Notes: a model not told the origin generated them from the letters alone. Positions 50,624 through 54,594 are shown, counted from the first letter of the stretch. The stretch: 64,000 nucleotides of DNA from Sphingomonadales bacterium (GCA_038228865.1 JBBROX010000001.1:368657-432656); one strand, 5' to 3'. Numbers and translations are program-made.

Positions 50624-51492
50624 CCACAATCGCTTTCATTGGCCTGGGCCATATGGGCGGCGGAATGGCCGCCAATCTGGCTAAGGCTGGCCATGATGTC
50701 CGTGCGTTCGACCTTTCAGCGGCAGCGCTGGAAACGGCCAAGGCCAACGGATGTCTGCCCGTCGCGAGTGCCGCCGAGGCTGTCGCCGAGGCACAAGTCG
50801 TCGTCACGATGCTCCCCGCGGGGAAACACGTCGCGCAGGTCTATGAAGAGACGATCCTCAAGGTCGCCAAGCCCGGCACACTGCTGATCGACTCATCGAC
50901 CATCGACGTGGCGACGGCGCGTCAGGTCGCGGAGGCGGCGCAGGCCAAGGGGTTGATTGCGGTCGATGCGCCGGTTTCGGGCGGCATCGCGGCCGCTGCC
51001 GGGGGTACGCTGACTTTCATGGTTGGGGGCTCTGCCGAAGGGTTCGAGCGCGCGCGACCGATCCTGGAGGCGATGGGCAAGGCCGTCATTCATGCGGGTG
51101 CGATCGGGTCGGGGCAGGCCGCGAAGGTCTGCAACAACATGATCCTCGGTGCGACGATGGCGGTAACGACCGAGGCGTTCAATCTGGCGGCTGCGCTGGG
51201 CCTCGATGCCAAGGCGTTTTACGACATCGCCTCGGTCTCGTCGGGGCAGAGTTGGTCGATGACAAGCTATTGCCCGGTACCCGGTGTCGGCCCCGAAACG
51301 CCAGCGGATCGCGGTTACGAGGGCGGGTTTGCCGCTGCGTTGATGCTGAAGGATATGCGCCTCGCGCTCGACGCCGCGCAGACGAGCGGTGCGCACGTTC
51401 CGGTCGCGGCGTGCGCCGCCGAACGCTATCAGGCGCTGGCCGATGCGGGGCAGGGCGGCAAAGACTTCTCCGCCGTTATCGGGCTGGATTAA
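50620..51492 (+). CDS. mmsB: 3-hydroxyisobutyrate dehydrogenase
   Basis: [42 protein letters not shown]. Confidence 0.93.
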
Positions 51493-52037
51493 GGGCGCTG
51501 GGCTCTGCTGGCCCGCCACTGGGCGGCGGTTTGGCCCCAGGCATCGACACGCGCGTCCTGAAACGGATCGGGCAATCGCGTCGGCCCGCTATTGGTCGAT
51601 CCCAGACGCTGCGCCAGCGCAATCGACCGGGTGTTCTCGGGGTCGATGGTGTGGATCACTTCGCTCCAACCCAGTATGTCGAACGCATAATCCATCGTGG
51701 CGACGACCGCTTCATAGGCATAGCCCTTGCCAGCAAACTGCGGCGCAACGCCCCAGCCGATTTCCTTCGCCGGCCAGCCCTCGGGTTCCCACGGACCGAG
51801 CCTCCCGACCCATGCACCGGTGGAGCGCTCGATCACCGAGAACATTGCAAAGCCCTTGATGTCCCAGGCTCCGCGCATCGAACATAGCATGCGCCACGTT
51901 TCCGGACGTGACTGTACGCCGCCGATAAAGCGCATCGTCTCCGCATCTGCACTCATCACCGACCAGCCGTCCAAATCCGACGCTTCGGGCAGGCGCAGGA
52001 TCAAGCGCTCGGTGAACAGGATCGGCGCGCCAGTCAC
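51489..52037 (-). CDS. GNAT family N-acetyltransferase (RimJ/RimL-like)
   Basis: [15 protein letters not shown]...[21 protein letters not shown]. Confidence 0.85.
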
Positions 52038-52453
52038 CCGAAGCGTCCCTTCAGCTCCAGCAATGCAAGTGCGGCCTTCGCGGCTTCGCCGCCCTTGTCC
52101 TTCTGGGCCGGGTCCGCCCGAACGAGCGCCTGTGCTTCGTTCTCCACGGTCAAGATGCCGTTGCCGATGGCGATGCCGTCCATCGTCAGCGCCATGATGC
52201 CGCGCGCGCTTTCGCCCGCGACGATTTCGAAATGATAGGTCTCGCCGCGAATGACGACGCCGATCCCGACATAGCCGTCATAGCGCCCGCTTTCCGCCGC
52301 TAGCGAAATTGCGCCGGGAATCTCAAGCGCGCCGGGTACGGTGATCACCTCGACGTGATGCCCCGCGTCCTCCAGCGCCGCACGCGCGCCCGCGATCAGC
52401 ATGTCGTTCAGATGGTCGTAGAACCGTGCTTCGACGATCAGGAATTTGGCCAT
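52034..52453 (-). CDS. ribH: 6,7-dimethyl-8-ribityllumazine synthase
   Basis: [30 protein letters not shown]. Confidence 0.96.
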
Positions 52454-53754
52454 TATTCGCCCTTCGTACCGGGGATGGGACGCTCGCCGACGATCGACAG
52501 GCCATAGCCCTCGAGTCCGACCAGCGTGTGGTGCGTGTTGCTCAAAAGGATCATGTCGTGGACGCCGAGTTCGGTCAGGATCTGCGCCCCTACGCCATAG
52601 TCGCGCAATTCCTCAACCTCGGGCGCGCCCGCACTTTTGCCTTCGGCGCGCAACTGGATGAAACGGCTGATCATGTCCTGCCGCCGCCGGTTGATGACGA
52701 CAATGACGCCCGACCCTTGCTCGGCAATGGCCTCCATCGATCCCGACAAAAGCCCCGATCGCTCATTCAGCTCGCCAAATGTATCGACGAACATCGACAT
52801 CGTGTGCATGCGCACCAGCGTGGGCCTACCGGGGTCGATCCGTCCCTTTTGCAACGCGAGTGTCTCGTCGCCCGTTGCCTTGTTGAAGAAGGTGATCGCC
52901 TTCCACTCGCCGCCCCAGCGTGACTGGAACACCATCTCGGCGCGCTTTTCGACAAGGTGGTCGTGTTTGCGGCGATAGGCGATCAGGTCACGGATCGTTC
53001 CCATCTTCAGCCCGTGCAGCCGCGCGAACGACACCAGATCGTCCATGCGCGCCATCGTGCCGTCGTCCTTCATGATCTCGCAGATCACGCTCGACGGATT
53101 GAGGCCAGCTAACCGGGAGATATCGACGCCCGCTTCGGTATGCCCTGCGCGGACCAGGACGCCGCCATCGCGCGCGATCAGGGGAAAGACATGTCCGGGG
53201 GTAACGATGTCGTCGCGGCCCTTGCTGGCATCGATCGCCACCGACACGGTGCGCGCACGATCACCCGCCGAAATCCCGGTGGTTACGCCTTCGCGTGCCT
53301 CGATCGACGTCGTGAAAGCGGTTTCGTGGCGCGTCCCGTTGGCGCGGCTCATCAGGTCCAGACCGAGTTGTTCGACGCGTGCCTTGGTCAGCGTCAGGCA
53401 GATTAGGCCGCGTCCGTGCGTCGCCATGAAATTGATCGCGTCGGGCGTCGCCATCTGTGCCGGGATAATCAGGTCGCCCTCGTTCTCGCGATCCTCGTCG
53501 TCCACAAGGATGAACATGCGACCGTTGCGAGCTTCTTCGATGATCTCCTCGATCGGGACCAGCGTCGGGGCATCGTCGTTGCTGAATAGGAATGTTTCCA
53601 GTTTTCGCAATGTATCGGCGGTCGGGTTCCAGCTTCCGTCCTCCAGATCGCGCAAGGTGTTGGCGTGGAGGCCGGCGGCGCGCGCAAGGCCCGATCGCGA
53701 CATGCCACCCTCTGTCACGAGGCGGCGGACTTTTTGGATAAGGTCAGTGCTCAT
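52453..53754 (-). CDS. ribB: Xre-type HTH fused to DHBP synthase (RibB) and a degenerate GTP cyclohydrolase II-like domain
   Basis: N-terminal [33 protein letters not shown]; RibB motifs [39 protein letters not shown]; RibA-like tail LVRMH...[11 protein letters not shown] without Zn-binding Cys. Confidence 0.92.
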
Positions 53755-53764
53755 AATCACTCAT

Positions 53765-53784
53765 AATCACATTGAAATGTGATT
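53765..53784. promoter_or_regulatory. Perfect palindrome AATCACATT-GA-AATGTGATT, candidate operator for the HTH-RibB operon
   Basis: 9-bp inverted repeat with a 2-bp spacer, 10 bp upstream of the ribB ATG; overlaps a TCATAATCAC tandem duplication (53751-53770). Confidence 0.65.
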
Positions 53785-53883
53785 GTCCATATCGAAGGTA
53801 CAGTAGAATGTAGGTCGCAAAGGCGCACTTTGTTTCGGCCATGCACTTGGCGTCCGTCCGCACCCGCGATAGAAGCGAATAAT

Positions 53884-53907
53884 ACTGTATTGCAAGACTA
53901 ATACAGT
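53884..53907. promoter_or_regulatory. Inverted repeat ACTGTATT-N8-AATACAGT in the ribB/pcm divergent region
   Basis: Perfect 8-bp arms; 18 bp upstream of the pcm GTG. Confidence 0.4.
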
Positions 53908-53925: not shown

Positions 53926-54594
53926 GTGAGCAAGCCGACGATGCCATCCACCGCCGAAGCGACTGCCGACTCCGCCGCGATGCGTCGGGCGATGGTCATC
54001 AGCCAGTTGCGACCGAACAACGTCACCGATGTGCGGCTGCTTTCGGCGATGGAGCGAATCGCCCGCGAGCCGTTCCTGCCCGCCGAACGCCGGGCGGTCG
54101 CCTATACCGATCGTGCGGTGCCGCTGGGCAACGGCCGGGCGCTCAACCCGCCGCTTACCACGGGGCTGCTGCTCGATGCCGCCGAGATTGGGCCGAGCGA
54201 TCGTGTGCTGATTGTCGGCGCGGCGACGGGTTATGCGGCGGCCATCGCCCAGACGCTTGCCGGTCAAGTCGTTGCCGTCGAATCCGACCCGGCGCTGGCC
54301 GATGAAGCGCGTCGCAATGTGCCTGACCTCGATCTGGTGGTAGGCCCCTTGAATCTAGGGGCAACCGGCATGTTCGACGCCATCGTCATCGACGGGGCGA
54401 TTGAATCGGTTCCCGATGCACTCGTTGCCCAGCTGAGCCTGACCGGTCGGCTGACCTGTGCGATCAATGCTGGCGGCGTTGCGCGGCTTGCCGTCGGTCG
54501 GCGGGGCGGCACGGGTTTCGCGCTGTCGGAGTTCGTCGACTCTGAGGCCGTAACGCTGCCCGGCTTTGCGCCCGCCAAGGAATTCGTCTTTTGA
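53926..54594 (+). CDS. pcm: Protein-L-isoaspartate O-methyltransferase-like protein
   Basis: MVISQLRPNNV, AREPFLP, VLIVGAATGY, FDAIVIDGA; precedes tolC. Confidence 0.82.
   Translation: MSKPTMPSTAEATADSAAMRRAMVISQLRPNNVTDVRLLSAMERIAREPFLPAERRAVAYTDRAVPLGNGRALNPPLTTGLLLDAAEIGPSDRVLIVGAATGYAAAIAQTLAGQVVAVESDPALADEARRNVPDLDLVVGPLNLGATGMFDAIVIDGAIESVPDALVAQLSLTGRLTCAINAGGVARLAVGRRGGTGFALSEFVDSEAVTLPGFAPAKEFVF

Follow-up and report, generated by a model that had tools for sequence, protein, structure and literature searches.

A DHBP synthase with an N-terminal XRE-type helix-turn-helix as a likely repressor of its own riboflavin operon in Sphingomonadales

Results

An XRE-type helix-turn-helix is fused to the sole DHBP synthase of the genome

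Riboflavin genes are a textbook example of riboswitch control in bacteria. The gene analyzed here lies in a stretch of 64,000 nucleotides from a Sphingomonadales bacterium (GCA_038228865.1, JBBROX010000001.1:368657-432656), which we refer to as the window. It occupies 52453..53754 on the minus strand and encodes a protein of 433 residues, followed by a stop codon, in which a helix-turn-helix (HTH) domain of the XRE/Cro type precedes a 3,4-dihydroxy-2-butanone 4-phosphate (DHBP) synthase, RibB, and a domain resembling GTP cyclohydrolase II, the X domain of RibBX-type proteins. We refer to the gene as HTH-ribBX and to its product as HTH-RibBX. An earlier note on this DNA had described an XRE HTH in frame with an intact DHBP synthase. 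We found this to be correct: a single open reading frame (ORF) carries the Pfam matches HTH_3, DHBP_synthase and GTP_cyclohydro2, and in none of the 110 loci compared does a stop codon separate the domains. The interval assigned to the head in that note, 53575-53754, corresponds to codons 1-60, and the peptide quoted there is present in the protein. The minus-strand ORF can also be read from 53760 (52453..53760), which gives 435 residues counted from a GTG at that position; the ATG at 53754, which yields 433 residues, is the start used by the gene callers and by all homologues. Pfam coordinates below are given in the 435-residue (GTG-start) numbering.

The HTH domain, residues 1-57, is encoded at 53584..53754 on the minus strand and was delimited by Pfam HTH_3, fold matching, alignment and codon entropy. 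The HTH_3 match (PF01381) covers residues 12-58 with 24.0 bits against a cut-off of 23, a match to HTH_31 reaches 25.3 bits and stays under that family's cut-off of 27, and precomputed PF01381 matches are present in many homologues. A 14-residue segment includes helix 2 and the recognition helix with the turn between them, and the final helix reads WNPT..TL.KLE. The N-terminal 64 residues are 56-83% identical to those of 30 other genomes of the same bacterial family, among which the 14-residue segment and WNPT..TL.KL are almost invariant; in a 30-sequence alignment, A2, I6, A24, A27, G28, L29, N32, L34, W42, N43, P44, T48, L49 and L52 do not vary at all. Across 102 loci, the nucleotide entropy of the HTH at codon positions 1, 2 and 3 is 0.44, 0.28 and 1.34 bits, respectively. 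As only the third position is relaxed, the HTH codons are under coding selection.

An AlphaFold model of residues 1-70 has a predicted local distance difference test (pLDDT) score of 79, falling below 50 from residue 65 on. The closest folds to this model in the PDB are mainly of the XRE type, namely, C.AhdI, HipB, C.BclI, SinR, DdrO and the 434 repressor, with template modeling scores of about 0.57 and match probabilities of 0.9-1.0; the E-values of these matches are weak, in keeping with a domain of only about 60 residues. The recognition helix (residues 30-37) is not assigned as helical by DSSP in the model. The genome holds only one copy of this type of HTH.

A linker of about 11 residues (53551..53583, minus strand), variable in both length and sequence in the alignment, connects the HTH to the enzyme. 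The DHBP synthase domain occupies 52975..53550 on the minus strand (PF00926, residues 71-262, 273.9 bits). Over its full length, and with its catalytic motifs, GHTEA among them, it aligns with solved RibB structures, and the domain is predicted to be intact. As the single PF00926 match in the genome (3.26 Mb, 99.85% complete), it is the only DHBP synthase of this bacterium. The X domain follows at 52480..52944 on the minus strand (PF00925, residues 273-427, 117.4 bits). The description of this part as a dead RibA domain is supported by comparison with RibA2 of Mycobacterium tuberculosis, whose HSECLTGDVFGSRRCDCG is replaced here by an 18-residue segment in which all three zinc cysteines are missing. 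Overall, the enzyme part can be aligned along its entire length with M. tuberculosis RibA2 and with 6mnz, its best solved relative, a protein of 373 residues deposited as a DHBP synthase; in NCBIfam, residues 67-430 fall to bifunctional RibBA families, under the cut-offs of those families.

According to PMC10012899, which cites Brutinel et al. 2013 and Nouwen et al. 2021, proteins of the RibBX type join RibB to a domain that has no cyclohydrolase activity; Brutinel et al. are paraphrased there as finding that the X domain of Shewanella RibBX affects RibB activity by an unknown mechanism. Cyclohydrolase is presumably supplied in the present genome by a separate ribA at G000:C5:132576-133064 (PF00925, 209 bits), which is predicted to be intact and functional. 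The ribE gene is likewise located elsewhere in the genome.

No FMN riboswitch accompanies the gene

The earlier note had also remarked that no leader of the size of a flavin mononucleotide (FMN) riboswitch was evident, and our searches agree. The window is free of Rfam matches, and RF00050, the model of the FMN riboswitch, found nothing in the whole genome or in any of the 37 sampled genomes of the family, members without the HTH included. The same model does detect the riboswitch in 20 genomes of other families of the order and in the control genomes. Since the HTH-less members also lack the riboswitch, the HTH cannot simply be seen as its one-for-one substitute.

A conserved palindrome overlaps the predicted promoter of HTH-ribBX

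Immediately upstream of the gene, at 53766..53783, lies a perfect 18-bp palindrome that reads ATCACATT-TC-AATGTGAT on the gene strand and whose half-site cores are 10 bp apart. We designate it candidate operator O1. In gene-strand order, the region runs TGGACA ATCACATT TC AATGTGAT TATGAGTGATT ATG, such that the palindrome ends 11 nucleotides from the ATG. TGGACA, a putative -35 hexamer (53784..53789, minus strand), directly abuts the palindrome, and a putative -10 element, GATTAT, placed after TGT as in the extended -10 type (53763..53768, minus strand), overlaps its right arm. The ATG follows 8 nucleotides past GATTAT, and there is no Shine-Dalgarno (SD) sequence. The arrangement resembles a sigma-70-type promoter in which the candidate operator would fill the spacer and the -10 region.

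A position weight matrix built from the sites of the family was applied both to the whole genome and to upstream regions. With a score of 34.4 bits, O1 stands alone as a strong match in the 3.26-Mb genome, the runner-up reaching 17.2 bits. The whole-genome scan thus yielded no second site above 17.2 bits that would mark a further regulon member, and a pattern search in five relatives gave no more than one copy in each, which implies a regulon of one operon. The motif is present upstream in 110 of 110 HTH-ribBX loci (30 from the family and 80 from further species) with scores of 17-36.5 bits; the median of the 80 further loci is 29 bits (range, 17-35). Random 223-nucleotide windows, which served as the control, have a 95th percentile of -3.4 and a maximum of 9.5.

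The position of the motif is also constrained. Its center lies at -19 to -23 from the ATG in 79 of the 110 loci (24 of the first 30 and 55 of the further 80), and at -28 to -64 in a leader class that accounts for 6 loci of the first set and 25 of the second. Among 53 distinct loci with the center at exactly -20, the consensus is TTGaca-ATCACAtTgcgATGTGAtaa-N9-ATG. Only 2 of these 53 loci have an SD-like motif, versus 17 of 30 leader loci. Because the palindrome stands so near the ATG and no SD sequence is present, the ribBX mRNA is probably leaderless or nearly so and would begin at the ATG itself or immediately beside it.

A second, weaker site, usually with one good AATGTGAT half, is located 27-33 bp upstream in 47 of the 80 further loci and in roughly half of the first 30. 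Its distance of three helical turns suggests cooperative binding, by two dimers, at the loci that have it. Within half-sites, the core TCACA has its T and C in 98% of cases and its A-C-A in all, and 89 of the 102 scorable loci have HANTLR as their recognition helix. As both are nearly invariant, co-variation between helix and operator was uninformative.

The window has one peculiarity of its own. An extra half-site, GTGATT, lies at 53755..53760 on the minus strand, 10 bp downstream of the right arm of O1, and derives from two copies of TCATAATCAC (plus strand) that form a 10-bp tandem duplication at the start of the gene (53755-53769). This half-site is specific to the window and missing from the family consensus. 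The duplication also generates the in-frame GTG at 53760, two codons before the conserved ATG.

In one related genome, G037, the operon consists of ribBX, ribH and an aldo/keto-reductase gene, and the operator at its start is a weaker GCACA variant. The same genome has a perfect motif, TCACATTTCAATGTGA, followed by another ATGTGAT, at L153:2930-2945 (G037:C1:2869929-2869944), about 300 nucleotides upstream of a gene for a Vgb-lyase-like beta-propeller. This distal motif may be an auxiliary operator or an extra target.

The HTH head and the candidate operator are lost together

We found a ribBX orthologue without the HTH in seven genomes of the family (60-76% identical; six of the seven, 74-76%). 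Upstream of these seven genes there is neither an HTH in frame nor the motif. Genome-wide counts of TCACAYYNNRRTGTGA give the same picture: it is absent from all five HTH-less genomes checked, each about 100% complete, and is present in exactly one copy in four of five HTH-bearing genomes, adjacent to the gene in three of those four. The fifth HTH-bearing genome, G007, carries a GCACAT variant at the gene. A maximum-likelihood tree built from the enzyme part groups the five HTH-less genomes of genus g3 in one clade (support, 97/92) that is nested among HTH-bearing g3 members (95/92), indicating that the HTH and the operator were secondarily lost together. The motif was not relocated upstream of ribD or elsewhere in the HTH-less genomes checked, which speaks against its use by some separate trans-acting factor.

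The loss of HTH and operator appears to have come with a return of ribBX to the ribD-ribE operon. In G107, the sole HTH-less operon examined, ribBX is found within ribD-ribE-ribBX. Another HTH-less member of the family, G095, has four ribBX/ribBA-like paralogues (L051, L053, L055 and L056; 43-74% identity to the query), so that DHBP synthase genes are unusually numerous there.

The fusion is widespread in the family

The suggestion in the earlier note that the fusion may be family-wide is borne out by our sampling, as 31 of the 37 family genomes have it. A relative of the HTH occurs in at least 572 species genomes. This count, of species-representative genomes, is a lower bound, and the best 80 were listed. 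Among these best 80 of at least 572, all informative names belong to Sphingomonadales (Sphingomonas, Sphingorhabdus, Novosphingobium, Chakrabartia, Stakelama and Sphingosinicellaceae), and a few entries bear only higher-rank labels, such as Alphaproteobacteria or Pseudomonadota.

A search of about 400 genomes across the class (1-3 per family), made with the HTH sequence and then with a profile, returned no other RibB fusion outside the family; the HTH matches there are stand-alone or unrelated HTH proteins. Nor did any of the roughly 37 readable genomes out of 40 have an HTH upstream of a DHBP synthase within an ORF of suggestive length. Two weak matches at the class level are not RibB fusions either: L070 is a LexA/CI-like protein and L072 a multi-HTH protein. 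Weak matches to the HTH query also came from P0145, P0184 and P0181, which are proteins of 355-1235 residues with 4-9 tandem XRE HTH repeats.

In another family of the order, a homologous HTH (35-40% identical; ...AGLAPNTL...WNPS.ETL.KLE) is N-terminal on CoaBC/Dfp, the FMN-dependent phosphopantothenoylcysteine synthetase/decarboxylase. Such loci are present at L066:211-1704 in G042 and L065:292-1704 in G124, both on the minus strand, as well as in G136; the G042 protein has the Pfam domains Flavoprotein and DFP. The ribBX of genomes bearing HTH-CoaBC/Dfp is without an HTH. Upstream of the HTH-CoaBC gene of G124, there is a AATGTGAT half-site within a degenerate ATCGCAAA-TT-AATGTGAT repeat. 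HTH-CoaBC/Dfp may be a second enzyme-repressor made from the same HTH module.

Neighboring genes

The gene for lumazine synthase, ribH (52034..52453, minus strand; PF00885, 141.8 bits), has a start that overlaps the ribBX stop. It is single-copy in the genome, and in 58 of 63 full-length related loci it follows ribBX on the same strand. A GNAT acetyltransferase gene (Acetyltransf_3, RimJ/RimL-like; 51489..52037, minus strand; PF13302, 110.1 bits) in turn overlaps the ribH stop by 4 nucleotides and is probably co-transcribed and translationally coupled with the riboflavin operon in this genome. With a GNAT gene downstream in just 7 of the 63 related loci, it is not a conserved part of the unit.

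On the other side, the 171-bp gap to a divergent pcm gene, reported in the earlier note, was confirmed, with the GTG start of pcm at 53926. This neighbor is found in 1 of the 63 related loci and is not conserved. A second inverted repeat, ACTGTATT-N8-AATACAGT, is located at 53884-53907, 19 nucleotides upstream of the pcm start, and a related TACATTCTACTGTA at 53799-53812; neither of these pcm-side repeats fits the ribBX operator motif. We rejected a LexA box as an explanation for the pcm-side palindrome, as its spacing seems unlike that of gammaproteobacterial and alphaproteobacterial SOS boxes.

Discussion

A proposed enzyme-repressor

The earlier note had proposed that ribB-ribH is transcriptionally autoregulated. 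The uniqueness of the palindrome in the genome, its conservation in all 110 HTH loci and its joint loss with the HTH all speak for this proposal, and we consider it likely that HTH-RibBX is both an enzyme and the repressor of its own ribBX-ribH operon. From the sequences, we infer a protein that would bind DNA specifically and as a dimer. The DHBP synthase body, the cell's only such enzyme, would make 3,4-dihydroxy-2-butanone 4-phosphate and would also supply the dimer that displays two N-terminal XRE-type HTH heads. The two heads would bind the half-sites of ATCACATT-N2-AATGTGAT, in which one helical turn separates the cores. Because the palindrome occupies the spacer that separates the -35-like hexamer from the ATG-proximal -10-like element, the bound protein would exclude RNA polymerase and so repress the operon for DHBP synthase and lumazine synthase. 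If the mRNA is leaderless, as predicted, control would be purely transcriptional.

Whether a ligand takes part is a further matter. It is a speculative extension of the proposal that binding is tuned by a metabolite of the pathway (ribulose-5-phosphate, DHBP, a flavin or a lumazine) through the enzyme or the X domain. The X domain is a candidate sensor because that of Shewanella RibBX is said, in PMC10012899, to influence RibB activity. That HTH-RibBX is the first bacterial protein transcription factor for riboflavin biosynthesis, switched by a metabolite through the X domain or the DHBP synthase active site, we therefore put forward only tentatively, as possible but doubtful.

Several observations weigh against the proposal that HTH-RibBX represses its own operon. 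The HTH_3 score barely exceeds the Pfam cut-off. The promoter hexamers match weakly, and their spacing of 15-17 nucleotides is ambiguous. The window lacks the second upstream site found at many other loci. The perfect motif of G037 sits 2.6 kb from the gene start, past the end of the operon. The joint loss is partly confounded, as a promoterless ribBX such as that of G107 would lose its operator anyway. Lastly, a full-length AlphaFold model (47-sequence alignment) has a mean pLDDT of 55.6, too poor for HTH geometry, and we discarded it for judging the fit of two heads to half-sites 10 bp apart.

Alternative explanations

One alternative is contained within the proposal itself: HTH-RibBX may be a plain negative autoregulator that fixes the level of the enzyme independently of any ligand. 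A regulon of one operon, which encodes the regulator itself, fits this simpler scheme, as does the fact that the fused X domain and enzyme are 74-76% identical to unfused relatives and show no obvious added sensor feature. On the other hand, the characterized enzyme-repressor fusions BirA, NadR and PutA are metabolite-responsive, and DNA binding by RbkR responds to ligands as well (PMC5397151). A vitamin pathway free of feedback would be unusual in a family that is also without FMN riboswitches. We regard ligand independence as rather unlikely, though it deserves serious consideration. We hold it to be improbable that HTH-RibBX instead activates its operon, either by recruiting RNA polymerase to a weak promoter or as a dual regulator acting through the second, upstream site. 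Activation from positions of this kind is known for certain XRE proteins, lambda CI at PRM and the C-proteins among them; the -35 and -10 matches here are imperfect, and in many loci the second site lies upstream of the -35 element, where activators typically bind. However, the strongest site, and the one that is always present, overlaps the spacer and the -10 region, a classical position for repression, and the window is without any upstream site.

The palindrome could also serve another regulator, with the fused HTH retained for protein-protein contacts or vestigial in DNA binding. The pairing of the fused HTH with the palindrome is a prediction, and stand-alone relatives of the HTH do exist in other Alphaproteobacteria (37-44% identity in the loci read), as ORFs of 83-131 residues or as domains of larger non-RibB proteins. 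Yet the genome itself has a single copy of such an HTH. The motif accompanies the HTH in 110 of 110 loci and is absent genome-wide from the five HTH-less relatives checked, and a helix and half-site that are near-invariant over hundreds of species fit a dedicated pair, which together make a separate regulator very improbable. Finally, the fusion could be an artifact of annotation, with two genes at the locus or a true start inside the ORF that would leave the HTH outside the enzyme. The start could in principle be mis-set, given that there are two in-frame candidates, the GTG at 53760 and the ATG at 53754. Against this, no interdomain stop occurs in 110 loci, relaxation is confined to the third codon position, the N-terminus falls at the same ATG in most loci, and reading by eye, with no systematic scan, revealed no SD-bearing internal start before the DHBP synthase core. 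We give an artifact hardly any credence.

Significance

Repression by HTH-RibBX of its own operon would have consequences beyond this locus. Sphingomonas, Novosphingobium, Sphingorhabdus and their relatives, a large and environmentally important group of bacteria, seem to govern the DHBP branch and lumazine synthase by means of the enzyme itself. The design is compact, in that a single protein would act on a single 18-bp operator ahead of an mRNA that is probably leaderless. If DNA binding is moreover switched by a metabolite, as tentatively suggested above, a whole bacterial family would use an enzyme-repressor instead of a riboswitch for vitamin B2, and the X domain of RibBX would gain a role as an allosteric sensor. 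The system would also provide a simple and portable promoter-operator-repressor unit for Alphaproteobacteria, possibly responsive to a metabolite, while the joint loss of domain and operator in one clade would illustrate how a regulator and its site co-evolve. The proposal is testable with one purified protein and one oligonucleotide.

In the open-access literature (PMC and bioRxiv), we found no paper on an HTH-RibB fusion, and archaeal RbkR was the only well-described protein regulator of riboflavin genes that we found there. A protein-based control of riboflavin synthesis of this kind seems not to have been described before and would be common to hundreds of related species.

Comparison with known systems

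The FMN riboswitch (RF00050) presumably does the same job, feedback control of riboflavin genes, but it is made of RNA and needs a leader of about 140 nucleotides, whereas the leader of HTH-ribBX is probably 0-5 nucleotides long. With respect to the enzyme, HTH-RibBX resembles the RibBX proteins (Brutinel et al. 2013, cited in PMC10012899; the RibBX of Acinetobacter baumannii is mentioned in PMC12458113, and 6mnz is the best solved relative): a DHBP synthase is combined with a GTP cyclohydrolase II-like domain devoid of zinc ligands, and a separate ribA supplies the cyclohydrolase. The RibBX proteins whose descriptions we found are without an N-terminal HTH and are encoded in ribD-ribE-ribBX-ribH operons. 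HTH-RibBX differs in adding the XRE HTH, and ribBX-ribH would form a promoter-operator unit of its own.

As a DNA-binding protein, HTH-RibBX is predicted to act like the small XRE repressors (C.AhdI and other controller proteins, HipB, SinR and the 434 repressor), which autoregulate through a palindrome in their own promoter and bind inverted repeats as dimers, often at two adjacent cooperative operators. These are small stand-alone proteins or antitoxins, while dimerization of HTH-RibBX would have to come from the enzyme body of about 370 residues.

The combination of both activities places HTH-RibBX among candidate trigger enzymes, as a DNA-binding domain and a pathway enzyme share one polypeptide and a candidate operator lies in the promoter of the enzyme's own pathway. 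BirA, NadR and PutA are likewise metabolic enzymes with an N-terminal DNA-binding domain that repress their own pathways (PMC5397151); their enzymes and HTH classes are unrelated to those of HTH-RibBX, none of them serves riboflavin, and their binding is tied experimentally to a ligand or to membrane association. The closest analogue of HTH-RibBX is archaeal RbkR (Rodionova et al. 2017, PMC5397151), in which a CTP-dependent riboflavin kinase carries a winged HTH. RbkR regulates several rib and transport operons, and its binding is modulated by CTP and FMN. Both are riboflavin-pathway enzymes that bear a DNA-binding domain at the N-terminus, both occur in lineages devoid of FMN riboswitches, and RbkR, too, was predicted from comparative genomics by way of palindromic sites upstream of rib genes (PMC5397151). 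They differ in that RbkR is a riboflavin kinase rather than a DHBP synthase, has a winged HTH rather than an XRE domain, belongs to Archaea rather than Bacteria, and governs several operons in response to CTP and FMN, whereas HTH-RibBX has one predicted operon, which encodes the enzyme itself.

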